From: Cereibacter sphaeroides 2.4.1 | Lineage (GTDB): Bacteria > Pseudomonadota > Alphaproteobacteria > Rhodobacterales > Rhodobacteraceae | DNA: 32,000 bases | Reading direction: 5' to 3' | Assembly: GCF_000012905.2 (NCBI RefSeq) | Contig: NC_007493.2 | Span: 870,001-902,000, forward strand | The notes under the pieces: model-generated | What the model saw: the letters and a program-made list of their open reading frames with translations, nothing else | Told to the model about the DNA's origin: nothing | The model's database searches: none | Part shown: piece by piece, positions 6,734 through 21,112 of the stretch | Layout: each line of letters starts with the position of its first letter | How positions within the stretch are numbered: the first letter of the stretch is position 1 | Program-made: the position numbers and the translations under genes

Positions 6734-6757
6734 GGGGCCTCCGCTGCTGGTGCGGGC

Positions 6758-6786
6758 TCTATCTGCCCCACGGGTCCGTCTGTCAA
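6758..6786 (-). promoter_or_regulatory. Candidate sigma70-type promoter for purC
   Basis: On the minus strand: TTGACA (6786-6781), a 17-nt spacer, then GATAGA (6763-6758). This lies about 25 nt upstream of the purC ATG, in the 66-nt gap after the DedA stop. The -35 is perfect; the -10 is weak. Confidence 0.3.
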
Positions 6787-6799
6787 CGGGGAAGGGGCC

Positions 6800-7237
6800 T
6801 CAGCCCGCCACGGCGGAGAAGCCCGCGGCGAGAAGCGCGTAGCGCGCGGCCTTGCCGAGACCCACGAGGAGGAGGAAGGGCCAGAAGCCCACCTTAAGCA
6901 TGCCGGCGGCCACCGTCAGCGGATCGCCCACCACCGGCACCCAGGCGAAGAGGAGCGACCAGAGCCCCCAGCGGCGGTAGCCCCGCTCGGCGCGGGCGAG
7001 GGCGGCCGCGGAGACGGGAAACCAGCGGCGGTCGCGGAAGCGGATGAGGAACCGCCCCAGCGCCCAGTTGACGAGCGAGCCCGCGAGATTGGCGGCCGTG
7101 GCCACCGCCACGAGCGGCGCTGCGGGCTCTCCGGCGGCCAGAAGGGTCAGCAGGAGCGCCTCGGAGGAGCCGGGCAGCAGGGTCGCCGAGGCGAAGGCGC
7201 TGAGCGCGAGCAGGAGGACCGCGGAGAGGCCGTCCAC
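6800..7237 (-). CDS. DedA/YqaA-family small inner-membrane protein
   Basis: 145 aa and highly hydrophobic with about 4 TM segments. The pattern LPGSSEALLL ... WGLWSLLFAWVPVVGDPLTVAAG is typical of YqaA/DedA (SNARE-associated) proteins. Confidence 0.8.
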   Translation of the reverse strand: MDGLSAVLLLALSAFASATLLPGSSEALLLTLLAAGEPAAPLVAVATAANLAGSLVNWALGRFLIRFRDRRWFPVSAAALARAERGYRRWGLWSLLFAWVPVVGDPLTVAAGMLKVGFWPFLLLVGLGKAARYALLAAGFSAVAG

Positions 7238-7241
7238 CGGA

Positions 7242-8339
7242 TCAGCGCGCCTGCGAGATATAGGCCGCGATCCCGGCTGCGATCAGCCCGAGCAGGACCG
7301 CGAAGGCGATCTTCCAGGCCGACCAGGGCCGCTCGCCCTGCACGCGGCCGGTCTGGCCATTGACCACGAAGCGGTAGCTCTTGCCGCCGTAGCGGTAGGC
7401 CGCCATCCAGACCGGCAGCAGCACATGCTTGAAGGTCTCGCGGTCGTAGGCGGTCTCGACCTGGCCCACCCGCTGCTCGTCGCCGCCGATGTCGCGCGCC
7501 ACGTCGCCCCGGATCGTGCGCGCCATGATCTCCTGCGCGCGGGACCAGCCCTCCGGCAGCCCGACCGTGTAGCCCTCGGCGGTGAAGCCCGCGAGCCAGT
7601 CGGCGCGGTAGGGCTCGAGCGCCGACAGGTCCCACGGTTCGAGCGCCTCGGTATAGTGGCGCGGAAGGCTCTGCGAGGCGAGCACCAGCACATCGTCGAA
7701 CTCGCGCGCGACGCGGCCCGAGACCGGGGTCCAGCGGATCTGGCGCACGCGTTCGGTGCGCCGCTGCGGGCGGCCGTTCACCTCGACCGTGACGGTGCGG
7801 GTCGTGTAATAGGCGTCGCCCCGCTGGCCGGTGTAGCGGCTGCGGGTGGCGGCGTCGAAGGTCCAGTAGGGGACATAGAGGCCCGAGAGCGCACGGCCCT
7901 TGCGGGCATATTGCACGAGCCCGTTCGGCGCGAACCAGAGCCGGCCCAGCCAGTCGGTCATCGCCTGACGCGCCTCGCGCTCGGTCAGGCGAAAGGGGAT
8001 GACGGCCTGCGGCTTCAGCAGCCGGGTCTCGCCGGTGCCCGCCACCACGGGCGTGGCGCAGAAGGGGCACTGGGTCGCGTGGGTCGCGCCCTCGAACTCG
8101 ACCAGCGCGCCGCAGGAGGGGCAGGGGGTCGTGCGCACCTGCTCCGAGGCCGAGGCGGGCAGCCTGTCGGCCAGCGCGGCATGGAGGTCGAGCTCGCCCA
8201 TGCCGCGGCGGTCGGTGGGGGCGGTCGCGGGGATCTCCTGCACATGTCCGCAATGGTCGCAGACGAGCCGGGTCTGCCCCGGCGCAAAGCGGAGATCGGC
8301 CCCGCAGCTTTCGCAGGGCCAGTGCCGGACGTCCTGCAC
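7242..8339 (-). CDS. Double zinc-ribbon membrane-anchored protein (YdjG-like; often annotated as primosomal-N'-like)
   Basis: 365 aa. There are two CxxC...CxxC ribbons (CESCG..CDHCG and CPSCG..CPFC), a central beta-rich domain and a single C-terminal TM (IAFAVLLGLIAAGIAAY). The start lies 1 nt after the stop of the SPFH gene. Confidence 0.8.
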   Translation of the reverse strand: MQDVRHWPCESCGADLRFAPGQTRLVCDHCGHVQEIPATAPTDRRGMGELDLHAALADRLPASASEQVRTTPCPSCGALVEFEGATHATQCPFCATPVVAGTGETRLLKPQAVIPFRLTEREARQAMTDWLGRLWFAPNGLVQYARKGRALSGLYVPYWTFDAATRSRYTGQRGDAYYTTRTVTVEVNGRPQRRTERVRQIRWTPVSGRVAREFDDVLVLASQSLPRHYTEALEPWDLSALEPYRADWLAGFTAEGYTVGLPEGWSRAQEIMARTIRGDVARDIGGDEQRVGQVETAYDRETFKHVLLPVWMAAYRYGGKSYRFVVNGQTGRVQGERPWSAWKIAFAVLLGLIAAGIAAYISQAR

Positions 8340-8340
8340 C

Positions 8341-9450
8341 TCAGGCGCCCGGCGGCAACGGCGGCGGGATCCGCGCGAAGAGCGGCGCCAGAGCCGCGAC
8401 CTCGCCCGCGGGAACCCAGCCCTCCTGTCCGGGGGTCCAGACGAGGGTGGCGCGCGTCACCTGACCCGCCGCCACGCGCCGGGCCAGATCGGCCTGCGCG
8501 ATGGGTCCCTCGGACTGGCCGTTCGCCGCCACATGCCAGACCGGCTCGGTGGGCGGCGGAGGGGGTGGGGGAGCCGCGGGCTCGGCCGCCGCAGGCGCTG
8601 CGCCCCACGGGCCCATGCGCTGCGCCATCCCGAAGCCCATGGCCGCGCCCATGCCGCTTGCCACCGCGGCGCCGGCGGCCGAATTCGGCGCCGCCATGGC
8701 CTCGGCCGCGCTGTATTGGGTGAACTTGCCCAGATCGCCCACGATCCCCATCGAGGTGCGCTTGTCGAGCGCCTTCTCGACCTCCTGCGGCAGCGAGATG
8801 TTCTCGATGTAGAGCTCGGGGATCGAGAGGCCGTAGGCCGCGATGGTGGGCGCGATGGCCTCGGCCACGAGCTTGCCCAGATCGGCGGTGTTGGCCGCCA
8901 TGTCGAGCACCGGGATCGACGAGGCGGCAAGCGCGCGGCCCATCTCCTGCACGATCACGTTGCGGATCTGGAAGCTGATCTCGTCGGCGGTGAATTCGCC
9001 GTCGGTGCCCACGATCTCGGTCATGAAGCGGCCGGGATCGGTCACGCGCATCGAATAGGTGCCGAAGGCGCGCAGGCGCACGGGTCCGAATTCGGGATCC
9101 CGGCAGATGATCGGGTTCTTCGTCCCCCACTTCTGGTCGTTGAAGCGGGTGGTATTGACGAAGTAGACCTCGGACTTGAAGGGCGAGCGGAAGCCGTGGT
9201 CCCAGTGCTGGAGCGTGGTCAGGATCGGCAGGTTGTTGGTCTCGAGCATGTAGAGACCGGGGGTGAAGACATCCGCCAGCTGGCCCTCGTGGATGAAGAC
9301 CGCGGCCTGCCCCTCGCGCACCGTCAGCTTGGCGCCGTATTTGATCGCATGACCCTGCCGCTCGAAGCGCCAGACCATCGTGTCGCGGGTGTCATCGACC
9401 CAGTGGATGACGTCGATGAATTCGCCGCCGAGGAAATCGAACAGAGCCAT
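8341..9450 (-). CDS. SPFH/Band-7-like protein (YdjI / virion-core-protein-like) with C-terminal Pro-rich linker and GYF_2-like domain
   Basis: 369 aa. The N-terminus MALFDFLGGEFIDVIHW ... REGQAAVFIHEGQLADVF is characteristic of YdjI-type SPFH proteins. The C-terminus has the linker PAAPPPPPPPTEP, then WHVAANGQSEGPI...LVWTPGQEGWVPAGEV, which is GYF_2-like. Confidence 0.85.
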   Translation of the reverse strand: MALFDFLGGEFIDVIHWVDDTRDTMVWRFERQGHAIKYGAKLTVREGQAAVFIHEGQLADVFTPGLYMLETNNLPILTTLQHWDHGFRSPFKSEVYFVNTTRFNDQKWGTKNPIICRDPEFGPVRLRAFGTYSMRVTDPGRFMTEIVGTDGEFTADEISFQIRNVIVQEMGRALAASSIPVLDMAANTADLGKLVAEAIAPTIAAYGLSIPELYIENISLPQEVEKALDKRTSMGIVGDLGKFTQYSAAEAMAAPNSAAGAAVASGMGAAMGFGMAQRMGPWGAAPAAAEPAAPPPPPPPTEPVWHVAANGQSEGPIAQADLARRVAAGQVTRATLVWTPGQEGWVPAGEVAALAPLFARIPPPLPPGA

Positions 9451-9452
9451 GG

Positions 9453-9641
9453 CTATTTCTTGGGAGCCGCCGTGGACCAGTCGCCCCGCGCAGGAACGAC
9501 GATGGCCGAGACCGCCTTCGGCGGCTTCGGCGCGGCGCCTTCGGCGGGCTTCCGCGGCGCGCGCGCGAACCAGCCCCGGTCGGGCCGGGCGCGGCTCGGC
9601 TGGTAGCCGTCGATCAGCAGGGTCCGTCTGTCATCCGGCAT
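9453..9641 (-). CDS. Candidate small protein (62 aa), hypothetical
   Basis: Internal ATG (codon 66) of track ORF 9453..9836. The ATG overlaps the stop of the upstream gene by 11 nt (ATGCCGGATGA), and the stop lies 2 nt before the SPFH start, so it exactly fills the only gap in the gene chain. The product (MPDDRRTLLIDGYQPSRARPDRGWFARAP...) is basic and low-complexity, with no domain I recognise. Confidence 0.3.
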   Translation of the reverse strand: MPDDRRTLLIDGYQPSRARPDRGWFARAPRKPAEGAAPKPPKAVSAIVVPARGDWSTAAPKK

Positions 9642-10269
9642 CGTCGGTCCTCTCCCGCTCGCCCTCCAGTTCGAGAAACTCGATGGAGCGCATCCCTTCC
9701 AGCGACAGCAGCATCGCGCGCGGCGGCACCACCTCGGCCCACTGCCCGTCGTCTGCGACATGATATAGGCGTTCGAGATAGATGTCGCCACGGTTTCCAT
9801 CGCTCGCCGCCAGCGACTCCTCGCCGAAGAGGCCATGGACGACCGTTCCGTCGGTGAAGGTCACGATCACGAAGCTCGGTCCCCTGTGCTTGCCGAAGGC
9901 GAAATCGTAGGCGCGCCGCGCCGGGTTCTGCACCGGCATGGAAAGCCTTCGCAGGAGCGAGCGGTTCCAGCCGAGCGAGAGGTTCCAGCCGAAGAGCGCG
10001 CCGAGGGTTGCGGGCAGCACCAGCACCTCGAGGAAGAAGACGCCGCGCGCGGGCAGGACGGGCGCCGCGGGCACGAGCGACCAGAGGCTTGCGAGGAACA
10101 GGAAGGCGAGCTGGTTGATGAGCGAGAGCGCCACCGCCTCGACCAGCTGCTCGGTGAGCTTCGGCCGCTCGCCCACCACGAAGCGCGAGCGCACCGAGAT
10201 CACGATCAGTCCCGCCAGCAGGTAGCGCGCGAAGAACTCGAAATTGTCGGGCGTGATCAGGCTGTTCAT
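9631..10269 (-). CDS. Membrane protein of unknown function (N-terminal TM bundle + soluble C-terminal domain; possibly DUF6338-like)
   Basis: 212 aa. There are 3-4 predicted TM helices in the first ~110 aa, then AYDFAFGKHRGPSFVIVTFTDGTVVHGLFGEES...DIYLERLY. Codon usage looks native (G/C-rich third positions). Confidence 0.7.
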   Translation of the reverse strand: MNSLITPDNFEFFARYLLAGLIVISVRSRFVVGERPKLTEQLVEAVALSLINQLAFLFLASLWSLVPAAPVLPARGVFFLEVLVLPATLGALFGWNLSLGWNRSLLRRLSMPVQNPARRAYDFAFGKHRGPSFVIVTFTDGTVVHGLFGEESLAASDGNRGDIYLERLYHVADDGQWAEVVPPRAMLLSLEGMRSIEFLELEGERERTDDAG

Positions 10270-10284
10270 CGCCCGGTCGCGCCT

Positions 10285-11250
10285 TCAGCTTTCGCCGCCG
10301 AGCAGCTCGTAGGCGATCGTCTGGACGATGGGCCGGGCCTCCTCGACCGTCATGCCGGGCTTCAGGCGCCGGTCGTAGAGGATCTTCAGCATCAGCTCGT
10401 CCTGGGTGGTCAGAAGCGCGAATTCCTCGTCGTCGTTGAAGATCGAGGGCCGCGCGTTCGGGCTGTCGTTGGCCAGCCCCAGCCCCTGCGCGATCTCCTC
10501 GTGCAGGCAGGCGAGGCGCAGCAGGTCGGGATGTTCGGAGCGGATCACCGCGAAGGCGCGGTTGTAGACGCTCGTCGCATCGTCCGAGAGCGCATAGACG
10601 AGGCAGTAGGTGGTGGTGGGAAGCTGCGTGATCCCCGCGATCTCCGCGGCGGAGAGGGTGGGCAGCGCCTCGGCCACCTGGGGCCCGAGCGCGCGGCGCT
10701 CGTCCTCGGAGACGACCTGAAGCCAGAAGTTGATGCCGCTGTCGGCCAGCGCGATCGGGTGGCCGGTGATCTTGGCCAGCCGCGCCAGATACGAGGCGAT
10801 GCGCGCCCGGTCTGTCGCCCGCCGCTCCTCGGGAACCGAAGCGCCGAAGCGCAGGCCCACGCGCACCGGCGCTTCCCAGCGGCGCAGCCGGCTTTCGACC
10901 TCGCGCTGGGCGAAGCCGCCGCCCTGCCGCTCGTATTCGTCATAGAGCGCGATGCGGATGAAGTTCTCGGCCAGCATCCGGTCGGTATAGGGCGTGTCGC
11001 GCCCGCCGCCGTCGGTCCGCAAAAGGCCCTGCGCCAGAAGGTCGGTCTGCACCTTGGCGAAATAGGCCCGTATTGCCTGCGACTCGGGGCTCTCCTTCAC
11101 CGGACCCTGAAGATCCGCCGGCCGCGCGCGCGGACCGAGTCCGTGCGCGGGCTCGCGCGGGGCGGGCGGCGTGCAGGCCGACAGGATCGCGCAGGCGGCC
11201 AGCGAGAGGCCGCCGTGGAGAAGGGTCGAGAGGCGGACGCCCCGGTGCAT
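10285..11250 (-). CDS. Lipoprotein of unknown function (DUF2927-like)
   Basis: 321 aa. It has a signal peptide with lipobox LSAC (MHRGVRLSTLLHGGLSLAACAILSAC). The motifs FIRIALYDEY and HEEIAQGLGL recall the DUF2927 family, which is common in Rhodobacteraceae. The family assignment is from memory. Confidence 0.7.
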   Translation of the reverse strand: MHRGVRLSTLLHGGLSLAACAILSACTPPAPREPAHGLGPRARPADLQGPVKESPESQAIRAYFAKVQTDLLAQGLLRTDGGGRDTPYTDRMLAENFIRIALYDEYERQGGGFAQREVESRLRRWEAPVRVGLRFGASVPEERRATDRARIASYLARLAKITGHPIALADSGINFWLQVVSEDERRALGPQVAEALPTLSAAEIAGITQLPTTTYCLVYALSDDATSVYNRAFAVIRSEHPDLLRLACLHEEIAQGLGLANDSPNARPSIFNDDEEFALLTTQDELMLKILYDRRLKPGMTVEEARPIVQTIAYELLGGES

Positions 11251-11262
11251 GATGGCCTTTCC

Positions 11263-12453
11263 TCAGGGTCGGACGGATGTTCCGGCAGTGTCGCCGGTCC
11301 CGGTGCGGCGGGCGCGGGCGGAGGCGAGCGTGTCGCGCAGCTCGGCCTCCATCCGCTGAAGCTCGGTCTCTGCCGTGGCACGGCGGGCGCGGCCCTCGTC
11401 GGCGATGGCGAGGCTTTCGTTGATCGTGGCGATCAGCGTCGCATTGGCCTTCTTCACCGCCTCGATGTCGAAGACGCCGCGCTCCATCTCCTTGCGGACG
11501 ATCTTGTTGGCCTGCTGGAGATTTTCGGCATTCGCCGTCAGCAGCTCGTTCGTCAGGTCCGAGGCGCCGCGCACGGCCTCGGCCGCCTCGCGCGACCGCT
11601 GGATGGTCACGGCCTGCGCCAGCTGCGTCTCCCAGAGCGGGACCGTGTTGACGAGGGTCGAGTTGATCCGCGTGACCAGCGCCTTGTCGTTCTCCTGCAC
11701 GAGGCGGATCGAGGGCAGCGACTGCATCGTGACCTGACGGGTGAGCTTGAGGTCATGCACCCGGCGCTCGAGATCGTCGCGGGCGGCGCGCAGGTCGCGC
11801 AGCTCCTGTGCCTTGATCATCCGGTCGCCCTCCGGCGTCGCCGCCACCTCGGCCTCCTTGGCCGGGATCACCCGTCCGTCGAGATCGGCCAGCACCTCGT
11901 CGCCCGCGGCGATGTAGAGCGCGAGCTCGTCGTAGAAGTCGAGCGTGCGGGCATAGAGGATGTCGAGCCCCTTGATGTCCTTCAGCAGCCGGTGCTCGTG
12001 GGTCAGGAGCGACTGGGTGATCCGGTCGATCTGCTGCTGCACATCCTCGTAGCGGGCGACGAAGCGGGCGAAGGGGGCGGTGCGGCCCAGAAGCCGCTCC
12101 CACCAGCTGGCCTTGCGGCGCACGTCGAACTCGGAGACCGAGAAGCCGCGGATGGTCGAGACCACCTCGCGCAGCGAATCGCCGGCAGGCCCCACGTCCT
12201 TGTTCTTCACGTCGGCCAGCATCTGCTGGCTGATCGTCTGCAGTTCGGCCTGCGCCTTGGACCCGAAGCCGATGATCGACTGCGAATCGCTCACGTTCAG
12301 CTCGGCCATGCGGCGGCGGATCTCTTGGGCCTTCTCGGGCGGGGCGGAGGCCAGAGGCGTCACGGCCGGAGCGGGCTCGGGCAGGTCGGGGGCGGTCACT
12401 TCCGCAAGCCGGGGAAGGGCTTCGGCGGCCTCGCGGCGGCTGCTGTCGGTCAT
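11263..12453 (-). CDS. telA: Toxic anion (tellurite) resistance protein TelA
   Basis: 396 aa and all-helical, with a TelA/KlaB/YaaN-like sequence (SQSIIGFGSKAQAELQ..., ...IDRITQSLLTHEHRLLKDIKGLD...). I chose the ATG at 12453 (MTDSS), preceded by GAGCGAGG, instead of the track start at 12585. Confidence 0.88.
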   Translation of the reverse strand: MTDSSRREAAEALPRLAEVTAPDLPEPAPAVTPLASAPPEKAQEIRRRMAELNVSDSQSIIGFGSKAQAELQTISQQMLADVKNKDVGPAGDSLREVVSTIRGFSVSEFDVRRKASWWERLLGRTAPFARFVARYEDVQQQIDRITQSLLTHEHRLLKDIKGLDILYARTLDFYDELALYIAAGDEVLADLDGRVIPAKEAEVAATPEGDRMIKAQELRDLRAARDDLERRVHDLKLTRQVTMQSLPSIRLVQENDKALVTRINSTLVNTVPLWETQLAQAVTIQRSREAAEAVRGASDLTNELLTANAENLQQANKIVRKEMERGVFDIEAVKKANATLIATINESLAIADEGRARRATAETELQRMEAELRDTLASARARRTGTGDTAGTSVRP

Positions 12454-12569
12454 CTGAAAACCTCGCTCTCTGGAAGATCGCTGCCGGCCGCGCCGCGATG
12501 CGGCGTCAGCCTCCTGTATAGCAGGCCCCGGCCTCTTCTCAATCGAAGCGCGCGGCCGCGGCCAATCGG

Positions 12570-12594
12570 GCGGCAGGCGATGCAAGCCTGCCGC
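12570..12594 (-). other. Perfect 9-bp stem-loop between the XpaC-like gene and telA
   Basis: Stem GCGGCAGGC, loop gatgcaa, stem GCCTGCCGC, placed 8 nt after the XpaC-like stop. No T-tract follows on the transcribed strand, so it is not a canonical intrinsic terminator. Confidence 0.5.
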
Positions 12595-12601
12595 AGGGGG
12601 G

Positions 12602-13480
12602 TCAGGTCTCGCGCCCCAGACGGTCGCGCAGCACCTCGATCTCGAGGTCGAGCCCGGCCCGGTCGTTCTGCAGAAGCCGCCGGGTGCGGTCGGCGAAGCT
12701 GGTGCCCAGATCCTCGAGCAGCCGCTCGTAATCCGCGCGCACCTGCGGATCGCGCTCGCGGCCGTAGAGGTCGGCGAACTTCAGCGTCGCGTCGCGCGCG
12801 CCCATCAGATAGACGCCGAGATAGCGGCGCGCGGCCGTGAGATCGCCGGGATCGGCCTCGACGCTGCGGAAGAGCCCGCGCGCCGTGGTGGCGAAGGTCT
12901 CGAGCCGTCGGTCGAGGCTTGGATCGCGGAGGCGCGCCACCGCCTCACGCATCGCCGTCAGGTGGCTCTCGGCCTCCGCCACGGCGCGGCTCACCCGGTC
13001 GCTCTGGAAGCCGTCGACGCCGTCCGGGATCTTGTCGGTCAGCGGATCGGGCCCGAAGGCCGCCAGATGCAGAAGGCCGCCGATCCCGCCCCAGGCCGCC
13101 GCCACCAGCAGGCCCGCATCGCCCGCAAGCCCGCCCGCCAGGAGCCCGGCGCCGGTCAGGACCGAGGCGAATATCTTGCGCGGGATCGCCGGGCGCTTGG
13201 CCACGGGGCGGGCATCGTAGGCTTCCTCGGCGAGGATGCCCTGCCGGGTCAGCCAGGCGGCGAGAAAGAGCGCGGCGAAGGCTGCAAAGGCGGGAACGAA
13301 ATCCTGCGCGGGGCCGAGGAAGGCATCCCACAGGAAGAGGAACGGCAGGAAGAACAGGATGTTCGAGCGTCCGCCCGCGCGGCTCCGGCGCTTGCGGTCC
13401 CAGCGGCTGACCGGCGGCCCCGGAGGGCCCTCGCGCCGGGCATTGGCGGGGCTGAAGCGGCCGCCGTAGCGTTCGGCCAT
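12602..13480 (-). CDS. 5-bromo-4-chloroindolyl phosphate hydrolysis (XpaC)-family membrane protein
   Basis: 292 aa. A basic N-terminus and 3 TM helices are followed by a helical C-terminal domain (...RRYLGVYLMGARDATLKFADLY...). This architecture, and pairing with a TelA/YaaN homologue, are typical of XpaC. Confidence 0.78.
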   Translation of the reverse strand: MAERYGGRFSPANARREGPPGPPVSRWDRKRRSRAGGRSNILFFLPFLFLWDAFLGPAQDFVPAFAAFAALFLAAWLTRQGILAEEAYDARPVAKRPAIPRKIFASVLTGAGLLAGGLAGDAGLLVAAAWGGIGGLLHLAAFGPDPLTDKIPDGVDGFQSDRVSRAVAEAESHLTAMREAVARLRDPSLDRRLETFATTARGLFRSVEADPGDLTAARRYLGVYLMGARDATLKFADLYGRERDPQVRADYERLLEDLGTSFADRTRRLLQNDRAGLDLEIEVLRDRLGRET

Positions 13481-13481
13481 C

Positions 13482-13565
13482 TCAGGCGCCTCCCTGCGCC
13501 GCGACGTAGAGGGTGAGCCCCACGAGCAGCAGGAAAGCCAGCGTGCGCAGGCCCTTCGAGTTCAT
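13482..13565 (-). CDS. Candidate 27-aa single-TM micropeptide (MNSKGLRTLAFLLLVGLTLYVAAQGGA)
   Basis: Too short for the ORF track. The ATG at 13565 is preceded by GGAAAGGGGA with a 5-nt spacer. Its TGA lies 1 nt before the XpaC-like ATG (TGAGATG). The peptide has a positively charged N-terminus followed by a hydrophobic helix. Confidence 0.45.
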   Translation of the reverse strand: MNSKGLRTLAFLLLVGLTLYVAAQGGA

Positions 13566-13623
13566 CGCCATCCCCTTTCCGGTCCTTGGTCCCGGCCAAT
13601 ATAGGATGCCCGGGACCGGCTCG

Positions 13624-13647
13624 CCAGAAAAGGCGCGGAGACCCGCG
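13624..13647 (-). terminator. Weak candidate intrinsic terminator after rluB
   Basis: On the minus strand: stem CGCGG, loop GTCT, stem CCGCG, followed by CCTTTTCT. It lies about 20 nt after the rluB stop. The stem is only 5 bp. Confidence 0.25.
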
Positions 13648-13664: not shown

Positions 13665-15191
13665 TCAGCGCCCGCCGGGCCGGCCTTTCGGTCCGCGCGA
13701 GGGCGGGCGGGGGCCTGTGGGCTGCGGTTTCCGGTCCCCCTGGGCAGACGGCGTGCCCGTCCGGGGGCCCCGTCCGCCGGCGGTCTCGCCCGGTCCCTTG
13801 GCGCGCGGAGTGGGGGCGACCTTGGCCGCGCCGCCGCCCTTGGCCTTCGGACCCGCCGCGGCGCGACCCCGCGGCGCACGGGCGTCGATCGGCGTGTCGG
13901 GCAGGGCTTCTCGCCGGCTGCGGGCCGGACCCGCGGCCTTGGCCGGACCGCGCGGACCCTTGGCGGGCGCCTCGGCGCTGCGGCTACGGAACGCACGCGG
14001 CGCGTCGGCCGCCTCGGTCTTGCCGGACCGTCCTGCAGCGGCGGGTTTGCCGTCCGCCGGCCGGGTGCGTGCCGTGCCCTCGGCGCTGCCCGGGCGGGAG
14101 GTGCGCGCCGGGCCCGCTCCGGCGCCCCGCGCCGGGCGCGCAGCCTCGGCCGCGCCTTTGCCCGCCGAGCGCGCGCTGTCCTTCGGTGCCCCTGCCCTGC
14201 GCGCCGCCCCGTGGGGCGAGCGTCCCTTGGCCGGGCCTGCGGCGCCCTCGGACCCCGCCCCCCGACCCGCGCGGGCGGGTCCCTCCGCCGCGGCGCCGCG
14301 CGGCGGACGCGCGGTTCTTTCGGAGCGTGCGGCGCCTTCGGCTCGTGCAGGGCGTGCACCACCTTCCGCTCGTGCGGGACGTGCGGCGCCTTCGGATCTT
14401 GCCGGACGCGCGGCGCCCTCGGGTTTTCGTCCCCTGGCCGGGCGTGCCTCGCCGTCGGCATGCGGATCGAGGCCGAGCTGGTCGCGCAGGATCTTGGGGC
14501 GCACCTCCTCGACCATGCCGGGCTCGAGCTCGTTCAGCCGGAAGGGACCGTAGCTCACGCGGATCAGCCGGTTCACGGTGAGGCCCAGGGCGGACATGGC
14601 GCGGCGGATCTCGCGGTTCTTGCCCTCGCGGAGGCCCACCGTGAGCCAGGCGTTGGCGCCCTGCACCCGGTCCAGCGAGACGGTCATCGGCTGGAAGCTC
14701 TCGCCCTCGACCGTTATCCCCTTGCGCAGCGGCTCGAGGTCGGCGTCGGTCGGGTTGCCCTTCACCCGCACGCGGTACTTGCGCAGCCAGCCGGTGGAGG
14801 GCAGCTCGAGCCGGCGCTTCAACTCGCCGTCATTGGTCAGGAGGAGGAGACCCTCGGAATTGAGATCGAGCCGTCCCACCGACATGACGCGGGGCATCCC
14901 CTCGGGCAGGTGGTCGAAGACCGTCTCGCGGCCCTTCTCGTCCGAGGCCGAGGTGACGAGCCCTTCGGGCTTGTAATAGAGCCACAGGCGGGCGGGCTCG
15001 GGCGGGGCCAAGGGCTGGCCGTCGACGGTGATGCGGTCCTTCGGGCCCACATTCAGCGCCGGGCTGTCGATGGTGCGCCCGTTCACCGCGATGCGGCCAA
15101 GCTCGATCATCCGCTCGGCGTCGCGGCGCGAGGCGATGCCCGCACGAGAGAGAACCTTGGCGATGCGCTCGCCGTCTTTGCTGTCGGTCAT
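13665..15191 (-). CDS. rluB: 23S rRNA pseudouridine synthase RluB-type with a long Arg/Ala/Gly/Pro-rich C-terminal tail
   Basis: The start ATG at 15191 (MTDSKDGERIAKVL) is in frame with track ORF 13665..15893. It has an S4 domain (RIAKVLSRAGIASRRDAERMI) and the catalytic motif VGRLDLNSEGLLLLTNDG. Residues ~241-508 are a low-complexity basic tail. Confidence 0.88.
   Translation of the reverse strand: MTDSKDGERIAKVLSRAGIASRRDAERMIELGRIAVNGRTIDSPALNVGPKDRITVDGQPLAPPEPARLWLYYKPEGLVTSASDEKGRETVFDHLPEGMPRVMSVGRLDLNSEGLLLLTNDGELKRRLELPSTGWLRKYRVRVKGNPTDADLEPLRKGITVEGESFQPMTVSLDRVQGANAWLTVGLREGKNREIRRAMSALGLTVNRLIRVSYGPFRLNELEPGMVEEVRPKILRDQLGLDPHADGEARPARGRKPEGAARPARSEGAARPARAEGGARPARAEGAARSERTARPPRGAAAEGPARAGRGAGSEGAAGPAKGRSPHGAARRAGAPKDSARSAGKGAAEAARPARGAGAGPARTSRPGSAEGTARTRPADGKPAAAGRSGKTEAADAPRAFRSRSAEAPAKGPRGPAKAAGPARSRREALPDTPIDARAPRGRAAAGPKAKGGGAAKVAPTPRAKGPGETAGGRGPRTGTPSAQGDRKPQPTGPRPPSRGPKGRPGGR
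14327..14434 (-). repeat. Four imperfect 27-nt tandem repeats inside the rluB tail (9-aa units EGAARPARA-like)
   Basis: Units are at 14327-14353, 14354-14380, 14381-14407 and 14408-14434 (gtgcggcgccttcgg...). They encode ARPARSEGAARPARAEGGARPARAEGAAR. Confidence 0.75.
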
Positions 15192-20707: not shown

Positions 20708-21112
20708 GCCGTGCGGGTGGCCGGATGACCGCGAGCCTTCGGGCGCGAGGAAAGTCCGGACTCCATGGGACAAGGGTGCCGGGTAACGCCCGGCCGGGGC
20801 AACCCGAGGGAAAGCGCCACAGAGAACAGACCGCCCCACCGGCCTTCGGGCCCGGGGCAAGGGTGAAACGGTGGGGTAAGAGCCCACCGCGGGACTGGCA
20901 ACAGGACCGGCATGGCAAGCCCCACCCGGAGCAATGCCGAATAGGGGTTCCGCGCGGGCCTGATCCTTCCGGGGATATCGCCGCAGGGACGTCTCAGCCC
21001 GAGGAACCCGGGTTGGCAGCTCGATCCCGTCGGCAACGGCGGGGCCAGAGGAATGGTCATCGAAGGGGGCAACCCCGGAACAGAATCCGGCTTACAGGCT
21101 GCCCGCACAACT
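20708..21112 (+). ncRNA. rnpB: RNase P RNA, bacterial type A
   Basis: Universally conserved blocks GAGGAAAGTCCGGACTCC, GGGTGAAACGGTGGGGTAAGAGCCCACCG and ACAGAATCCGGCTTACAG are present. The P1 helix GTGCGGGTGGCC (20711-20722) pairs with GGCTGCCCGCAC (21097-21108), including two G-U pairs. The ends are approximate (+/-5 nt). Confidence 0.93.

Follow-up and report, generated by a model that had tools for sequence, protein, structure and literature searches.

The closest described relatives of the gene block considered here are two operons of Bacillus subtilis, namely xpaC-yaaN and pspA-ydjGHI (samGHI), both of which belong to the sigma-W envelope-stress regulon (PMC3498285). In the first of these, as in Listeria (lmo1966-1967) and Enterococcus faecium (xpaC-telA), a TelA/YaaN gene is immediately preceded by a co-directional gene of the family PF10112, and XpaC and TelA affect tolerance to daptomycin (daptomycin binding included), nisin and tellurite in Firmicutes, i.e., E. 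faecium and Listeria (PMC6811118; PMC12791056); a passage of another publication cites telA as a tellurite-resistance locus of R. sphaeroides (PMC6955997). In the second, the membrane proteins YdjG and YdjH recruit the soluble SPFH protein YdjI, which brings PspA, YdjH being in contact with both YdjI and PspA (PMC8581546); YdjG is composed of two zinc ribbons, a central YpeB/NTF2-like domain and a transmembrane (TM) segment (PMC11237479). The block itself comprises nine co-directional open reading frames (ORFs) on the minus strand of a 32,000-nucleotide stretch of Cereibacter sphaeroides 2.4.1 (NC_007493.2, positions 870,001 to 902,000; hereafter the window, within which all positions are counted), where modules of both types stand side by side. 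Its conserved core in Rhodobacterales is micropeptide gene-xpaC-telA-DUF2927-SPFH-ZnR, where ZnR stands for a zinc-ribbon protein. Since the literature search returned no work linking TelA with SPFH proteins and no mention of DUF2927, and since a large survey of Psp neighbourhoods makes no mention of TelA (PMC11237479), the cluster is classed as a new gene neighbourhood assembled from known modules, both of which appear to be older and separately mobile.

The core was delineated by a profile scan with an alignment of SPFH proteins, one genome being considered per species, from which the 80 best-matching loci were kept, all from Rhodobacterales, with SPFH identities of 67-75%. Gene content was established by tblastn with the window proteins, upstream counts refer to the 69 loci whose sequence extends 4.5 kb or more beyond the SPFH gene on its upstream side, and a junction was regarded as retained when both genes were found on the same strand and within 3 kb. 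The recurrent order is (rluB), micropeptide, xpaC, telA, DUF2927, SPFH, a variable slot and ZnR, with co-directional genes and short gaps, typically 13-55 nt; of the 69 evaluable loci, 66 have telA and the DUF2927 gene ahead of the SPFH gene, and 64 have xpaC there too. Inside the first module, the junction from xpaC to telA is kept in 62/64 loci; that from telA to the interposed DUF2927 is kept in 66/66, and inside the second module the junction from SPFH to ZnR is kept in 74/75. The inter-module junction, i.e., from DUF2927 to SPFH, is kept in 68/71 loci (96%), against 82% for the upstream flank, from rluB to xpaC (51/62), and 39% for the downstream flank, from ZnR to pfkB (28/71). In terms of retention, the boundary between the modules therefore equals the junctions within them and exceeds both flanks. 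Four Paracoccus loci (L010, L026, L034 and L039) are devoid of xpaC and of the micropeptide gene and retain telA-DUF2927-(DUF4241)-SPFH-ZnR, the upstream ORFs having been inspected in L010.

In the window, the nine ORFs occupy positions 6800-13571, on which the ORF listing, direct reading and public gene calls agree; the public gene calls of GCA_009767555.1, an identical sequence, include all nine, even those of 29 and 62 amino acids (aa). From the micropeptide gene down to dedA, the intergenic gaps are 1, 148, 12, 15, -11, 2, 1 and 4 nt, and the GC content at third codon positions is 0.88-0.93 across all nine ORFs, both small ones included. A simple hydropathy scan assigns one TM segment to the micropeptide, several to each of XpaC, the DUF6338 protein and DedA, a single C-terminal one to ZnR, and none to TelA and the SPFH protein. 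An earlier note, made from the letters of the window, had described nine co-directional ORFs separated by -11 to +15 nt apart from one gap of 148 nt, which the coordinates confirm. Its domain labels (XpaC-like, TelA, DUF2927, SPFH, YdjG-like and DedA) hold by Pfam or by architecture, what it called an uncharacterised membrane protein being DUF6338, and the two Bacillus modules it recognised are both present, namely a TelA 36% identical to YaaN with a PF10112 gene upstream, and a Band_7_1 SPFH protein with a protein of YdjG architecture. It also reported no PspA homologue, and indeed PF04012 matches none of the nine block proteins and none of the 13 other window ORFs scanned; the TPM domain (PF04536), as in YdjH, matches no block protein, and an Rfam scan gave no match within the block.

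As judged from its sequence, the first module contains a genuine XpaC-TelA pair, of the YaaN type known from Firmicutes. The telA gene (11263-12453, minus strand, as for all genes of the block) matches the TelA family PF05816 with 355.8 bits over profile positions 4-331 of 332, and its product is 36% identical to B. subtilis YaaN over 351 residues (E-value 1e-70), thus closer to YaaN than to plasmid KlaB (about 29%). The xpaC-like gene (12602-13480) matches PF10112 with 82.4 bits for a cut-off of 29.8 and encodes several TM segments followed by a C-terminal helical cytoplasmic domain; the match to B. subtilis XpaC is collinear and weak (18% identity, E-value 0.002), the protein described here being about 90 aa longer with an N-terminal motif and extra TM segments. 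Three further features set this pair apart from xpaC-yaaN, namely (i) a conserved micropeptide gene ahead of xpaC, (ii) a gap of 148 nt between xpaC and telA with a promoter-like element in Cereibacter, and (iii) the continuation of the pair into DUF2927 and the SPFH module. With the kilA operon of RK2/IncP plasmids (klaA-klaB/telA-klaC), the block has in common a TelA-family protein, KlaB being 28.7% identical over 82% of the query, but the flanking genes, as judged by family only, are here of other Pfam families (PF10112 and DUF2927), and the locus is chromosomal and vertically inherited. In work of O'Gara and colleagues of 1997, the telA of R. sphaeroides reportedly did not substitute for that of RK2.

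TelA is predicted to be a soluble, all-helical protein with three very long helices and no TM helix. Its AlphaFold2 (AF2) model is of low confidence (predicted local distance difference test, pLDDT, of 66), with Foldseek matches limited to non-significant generic coiled coils and no PspA, Vipp1 or ESCRT-III chain among the top 50 matches of this pLDDT 66 model. A sequence search of the Protein Data Bank (PDB) with TelA and a profile search with DUF2927 likewise returned no relative. The DUF2927 lipoprotein gene (10285-11250; PF11150, 227 bits) directly follows telA in all 66 evaluable loci; both the lipobox Cys26 and the motif C-x-HEE-xx-Q-xx-G-xx-ND of its product are invariant.

The second module is formed by the SPFH gene (8341-9450) and the ZnR gene (7242-8339). 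The SPFH protein is soluble and consists of a Band_7_1 domain (PF13421, 341.8 bits, the full profile being covered), a poly-Pro linker and a C-terminal GYF_2 domain (PF14237, 64 bits). ZnR (365 aa), for which no Pfam model scores above threshold, has a YdjG-type architecture: two zinc ribbons, C9/C12/C27/C30 and C73/C76/C91/C94, both CxxC...CxxC sets being invariant, then a central domain rich in beta structure and, at residues 344-362, a C-terminal TM helix. Its AF2 model is confident (pLDDT 81) and predicts helices and two very long beta-hairpins with strands of 30-36 residues; Foldseek gave no significant PDB match for this model, the top non-significant ones being beta-barrel pore toxins and secretins, and the central domain could not be confirmed as NTF2-like. 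The family is large, with 7,427 representatives of 50%-identity clusters at an E-value of 1e-3 or below, and is widely misnamed in public resources, e.g., "primosomal protein N'" (NCBI), "RNA polymerase subunit RPC12", "RPC12/RpoP" or "ribosomal protein S27E" (JGI) and, in Comamonas, "TFIIB-type zinc ribbon". Behind an SPFH gene, full-length homologues that are 26-37% identical occur in Vibrio, Comamonas, Tsukamurella and Enterococcus gallinarum. In the latter, the third gene of the set has a TPM domain (PF04536 match), so that the triad SPFH-ZnR-TPM corresponds to YdjI/YdjG/YdjH of Bacillus, and over its entire length ZnR can be aligned with its counterpart in this triad (E-value 1e-37). The N-terminus of ZnR, MDVITHKCPNCGG, was moreover set beside the primer-derived N-terminus of B. 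subtilis YdjG, MIISYKCPNC. The assignment of ZnR to the YdjG type is thus made via its architecture, the Enterococcus intermediate and this primer-derived N-terminus rather than via the full B. subtilis YdjG sequence.

Like pspA-ydjGHI, the second module associates a soluble Band_7_1 SPFH protein with a YdjG-type, double-zinc-ribbon membrane protein anchored at its C-terminus. Unlike that operon, the block lacks PspA and the TPM-domain protein YdjH, SPFH comes before ZnR in the gene order, the SPFH protein ends in a GYF_2 domain instead of a zinc ribbon, and the genes found upstream of the pair encode TelA, XpaC and DUF2927 where Bacillus has PspA. Because PspA and YdjH, two of the four defining components, are absent, the cluster falls outside the PspA-YdjGHI group. 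Stand-alone SPFH-ZnR pairs, as on a Vibrio coralliilyticus plasmid, in Comamonas and Tsukamurella and, with a TPM gene in addition, in E. gallinarum, exhibit the same genes in the same order with short gaps, but unlike the pair described here they have no TelA, XpaC or DUF2927 gene within 7-9 kb. The C-terminal domain of their SPFH proteins varies, i.e., helix-turn-helix in Comamonas, double zinc ribbon in Enterococcus and GYF_2 in Vibrio and Tsukamurella; SPFH proteins combining Band_7_1 and GYF_2 with a ZnR partner occur in loci without TelA in Vibrio, Tsukamurella and also Paracoccus. On the V. coralliilyticus plasmid (L083, 2718-10154), the pair adjoins divergent genes for TIR-domain, "TRAFs-binding" and WD40-repeat proteins, a defence-island-like context as against the housekeeping context seen in Rhodobacterales.

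Upstream of xpaC, the micropeptide gene (13482-13571) encodes 29 aa, or 27 aa from an alternative ATG at 13565, where the earlier note placed the end of the block, with a single TM helix; its stop codon lies 1 nt ahead of the xpaC ATG. Such a single-TM ORF of 23-34 aa (mostly 27-29) adjoins xpaC in 62 of the 69 xpaC-carrying Rhodobacterales loci, at a spacing of at most 16 nt and usually of -1 to +5, and follows the consensus M..TGLQKLAF.LLV.L..YV...GG, a pattern which is kept though the sequence has diverged. Judged by this conservation, the micropeptide is a genuine member of the cluster; it appears to be translationally coupled to xpaC in these 62 of 69 loci and has probably been overlooked by most public annotations. 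The N-terminus of XpaC itself carries the motif MAxR(F/Y)GGK(F/Y)SP, nearly invariant in Rhodobacterales (window positions 13450-13480, minus strand; loci L003-L088) and followed by some 30 highly variable residues, which makes it a candidate interaction or targeting motif. This motif falls in an N-terminal extension that the shorter B. subtilis XpaC (204 aa) is without. Besides, the sequence GPPGPP in the XpaC N-terminus was considered as a ligand of the GYF_2 domain of the SPFH protein, a reading that was rejected because proline motifs occur in only 9 of 69 XpaC N-termini.

Concerning transcription, a promoter-like bipartite motif, TGGCGAG-N14-CCTATATT, lies at 13598-13626 (minus strand) and ends 26 nt ahead of the micropeptide ATG. 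A corresponding motif, T(A/G)GCAAG-N14-CCTA(A/T)(G/A)TT, is present in 21 of 61 loci, where it ends 12-42 nt ahead of the ATG; as counted with the relaxed pattern T[AG]G[CTA][AG]-N16-20-CTA[ATC]N[TC][TC], for which about 0.005 matches are expected per 130 nt, this is some 65-fold over background, about 0.3 loci being expected. Just downstream of the rluB stop codon, a terminator-like GC hairpin, formed by CGCGGGTCTCCGCG then CCTTTTCTGG, is found at 13634-13647 (minus strand). The scan for such hairpins gave 4 against 3.3 expected from shuffled sequences, i.e., no enrichment overall, and this one is relevant because of its place between rluB and the block. Together, the upstream motif and the hairpin after rluB argue for a separate transcription start of the cluster at this point. 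In its sequence, the motif is similar to RpoH/sigma-70 consensus sequences of alphaproteobacteria, e.g., CTTG-N17/18-CYTATNT. Control of the RpoH type was nonetheless rejected as a candidate, since neither the terms TelA, tellurite and Band 7 nor the promoter string were found in the paper on the RpoHI/RpoHII regulons (text and supplements) or in the CenKR paper.

Further downstream, the 148-nt gap between xpaC and telA contains a GC-rich hairpin of 9 bp at 12570-12594 (minus strand), directly after the xpaC stop codon and with no U tract, and a promoter-like element, TTGAGA-N16-TATACA, at 12515-12542 (minus strand); taken as a whole, the gap shows no significant folding (z = -1.4). Among four Cereibacter species the block GATTGAG is invariant, and the block CTATAC is intact in three and diverged in L088. 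The gap measures about 150 nt in Cereibacter versus about 35-60 nt in other genera. With a promoter-like element ahead of telA in Cereibacter, a single transcript is therefore not assured, and telA may also be transcribed separately in this genus. A similar element, TTGAAC-N16-CCTAT, precedes telA in Paracoccus loci without xpaC, and in those Paracoccus loci that have no telA, a promoter-like element is found ahead of the SPFH gene.

Three of the nine genes, i.e., those for DUF6338, the small ORF orf62 and DedA, fall outside the core and are, by their distribution, recent accessory additions. The DUF6338 membrane protein gene (9631-10269; PF19865, 164 bits) and orf62 (9453-9641; 62 aa, Pro-rich, from ORF reading and a public gene call) are lacking in three other species of the genus (C. 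azotoformans, C. ovatus and one more), in which DUF2927 and SPFH lie 18 nt apart; C. sphaeroides is therefore taken to have acquired an insertion of 837 bp. A DUF6338 cassette occupies the same slot, between DUF2927 and SPFH, in Cypionkella (C. sinensis; DUF6338 46% identical) and in a Roseovarius species. No relative of DUF6338 was found in a scan of viral contigs, and a metagenome scan returned only C. sphaeroides itself. The orf62 reading frame overlaps the 3' end of the DUF6338 gene by 11 nt, has its stop codon 2 nt before the SPFH ATG and is always found together with DUF6338. Its counterparts by position (cassette at 9175-9994 in L057 and at 1-514 in L032) have the motif LxxGY(K/Q)P...PPK..SS.V in common with it, pairwise BLASTP being not significant. 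Because a small Pro-rich ORF bearing this motif accompanies DUF6338 each time, orf62 is probably a real gene, tied to DUF6338 rather than to the core. As to dedA (6800-7237; PF09335 VTT, 42.6 bits for a cut-off of 33.9), its place after ZnR is restricted to C. sphaeroides, C. azotoformans and C. ovatus; neither Cereibacter sp. L088 nor any of 80 other Rhodobacterales loci has the gene at this position. The nine genes thus do not form one unit, as had first been proposed, DUF6338 and orf62 being missing in three Cereibacter species and dedA being found here only in Cereibacter.

Other accessory genes were recorded in the variable slots. One or two genes for cytochrome-b561-like membrane proteins (PF01292, some matching weakly) stand between SPFH and ZnR in 22 Rhodobacterales species, and nowhere else in those loci (L006, L011, L016, L019, L027, L030, L032, L033, L036, L043, L045, L047, L054, L061, L068, L070, L072, L073, L075, L076, L079 and L080); they may represent a redox-linked accessory of the cluster.

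The surroundings of the block consist of housekeeping genes and an RNase P RNA (bacterial class A, 20713-21110, plus strand, 277 bits), the latter downstream of a group formed by gatC/gatA and an amidase gene. The run of genes on the same strand extends past the block, with rluB upstream and purC, pfkB and dtd downstream, and since it carries on at both ends, strand alone does not delimit the block. The 3' part of rluB (13665-14450, minus strand) encodes a C-terminal tail of about 250 residues of an RluB-like pseudouridine synthase, rich in Arg, Pro, Ala and Gly, with a GC content of up to 0.79, and the length of the RluB-like protein differs strongly among Cereibacter species (508, 466, 389 or 367 aa). 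At the other end, no terminator-like structure was found after dedA; the spacer between dedA and purC (6734-6799, minus strand) contains a perfect TTGACA and, 17 nt on, GATAGA, such that purC probably has its own promoter.

On balance, and with modest confidence, we lean towards reading the block as a Rhodobacterales cluster for the response to cytoplasmic-membrane stress, the products of which would act in one common pathway; a functional coupling of the two modules is plausible. The first module would contribute a membrane peptide of 27-29 aa, the polytopic XpaC and the soluble coiled-coil TelA, and the second a soluble SPFH-GYF protein together with a YdjG-type protein that is anchored by its tail and carries two zinc ribbons. 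In analogy to YdjG and YdjI of B. subtilis, ZnR would dock an oligomer of the SPFH protein on the inner face of the membrane, whereas XpaC together with the micropeptide may hold or gate soluble TelA, and the DUF2927 lipoprotein, fixed between the modules, would face the periplasm. Expression would probably proceed from the conserved promoter-like site ahead of the micropeptide gene and, in Cereibacter, from a second site ahead of telA, with DUF6338, its small partner ORF and DedA added to the variable slots in C. sphaeroides. A bolder version, which we consider doubtful, would make of the cluster a PspA-independent machine for membrane maintenance, i.e., a Psp analogue built around TelA, where the ZnR/SPFH platform positions TelA, XpaC and the micropeptide gate it, and DUF2927 couples it to the outside.

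The alternative that survives best is that XpaC-TelA(-DUF2927) and SPFH-ZnR are independent membrane-stress operons, which have become neighbours in a stable part of the chromosome with neither common partners nor common regulation; we hold this to be less likely than a common pathway. Several observations lend it weight and by the same token weigh against a common pathway. The modules are separable and found alone elsewhere: in three Paracoccus loci (L035, L037 and L038), SPFH-ZnR stands without telA behind fabF/fabI-like genes of fatty-acid synthesis. Contexts outside Rhodobacterales were drawn from a plasmid collection; there, no TelA gene was found within 7-9 kb of the pairs of Vibrio, Comamonas, Tsukamurella and Enterococcus, and among the matches listed for the 613 TelA-bearing and 157 SPFH-bearing records, only Rhodobacterales chromids were common to both. 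The linkage of TelA with SPFH was not seen outside Rhodobacterales and is thus found within one order only. Moreover, the wider synteny around the cluster (rluB, sometimes pfkB) is also fairly conserved, with rluB kept upstream in the 82% of loci mentioned above, and the loci compared, being the 80 that score best against the C. sphaeroides SPFH protein out of at least 600 candidates, are no random sample; the homologue searches, for their part, listed the best 120 matches, all at least 66% identical. Vertical inheritance therefore accounts for part of the linkage. Unrelated genes (SnoaL-like, DUF2306, DUF4241 and others) are housed in other genera at the junctions from DUF2927 to SPFH and from SPFH to ZnR, and the promoter-like elements ahead of telA (Cereibacter and Paracoccus) and ahead of SPFH (Paracoccus without telA) would fit separate operons. 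Against mere juxtaposition, however, the inter-module junction is kept as often as the intra-module ones and far more often than the downstream flank, the gaps are short and the genes co-directional, telA stays with SPFH-ZnR in the Paracoccus loci devoid of xpaC, and in B. subtilis, sigma-W has both modules under its control. The co-occurrence in gene neighbourhoods that the earlier note proposed to check thus stands for XpaC/TelA with SPFH/ZnR across Rhodobacterales loci; it was not seen beyond this order as regards TelA, nor beyond Cereibacter as regards dedA.

A second alternative sharpens the proposal of the same note: TelA would replace PspA as the effector and be recruited to damaged membrane by the SPFH/ZnR scaffold, with DedA, DUF2927 and DUF6338 as obligatory parts of a nine-gene system. 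TelA is long, helical and soluble, its gene lies two genes upstream of the SPFH/YdjG-type pair in most Rhodobacterales, a pair of the same type tethers PspA in Bacillus, and the window contains no PspA gene. Yet DedA, DUF6338 and orf62 are no constant members of the cluster, the TPM protein YdjH, i.e., the Bacillus contact of YdjI and PspA, is absent, and the Foldseek search with the low-confidence TelA model gave non-significant coiled coils only, with neither PspA nor ESCRT-III in its top 50. In addition, pairs of SPFH-GYF and ZnR without TelA occur in three phyla, and a GYF ligand of the PPG type is not conserved in XpaC. Taken as a whole, this proposal is unlikely. That the block, or its variable part, would be an island for anti-phage defence or abortive infection and not a housekeeping stress system is very improbable, for despite the TIR-domain and WD40 genes beside the V. 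coralliilyticus plasmid pair and the uptake of cassettes in the variable slots, eight block proteins have no match to any defence model of PADLOC-DB at an E-value of 0.01 or below, the core is vertically conserved in a housekeeping neighbourhood, and the viral-contig scans gave a single SPFH relative and none of DUF6338.

To come back to the reading favoured here, i.e., a membrane-stress cluster with products in a common pathway, the analysis tells apart six conserved genes from three lineage-specific passengers, and a conserved micropeptide and the uncharacterised lipoprotein family DUF2927 emerge as fixed members of the cluster. To our knowledge, SPFH scaffolds of the YdjI/YdjG type are known only as PspA tethers in Bacillus. 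The presence of TelA beside such a scaffold across an order, without PspA or a TPM protein, leads to the testable hypothesis that SPFH scaffolds serve effectors besides PspA, for which C. sphaeroides offers a tractable host with an existing telA phenotype. If true, the field of envelope stress would gain a candidate role for TelA and a second client for scaffolds of the YdjI/YdjG type.

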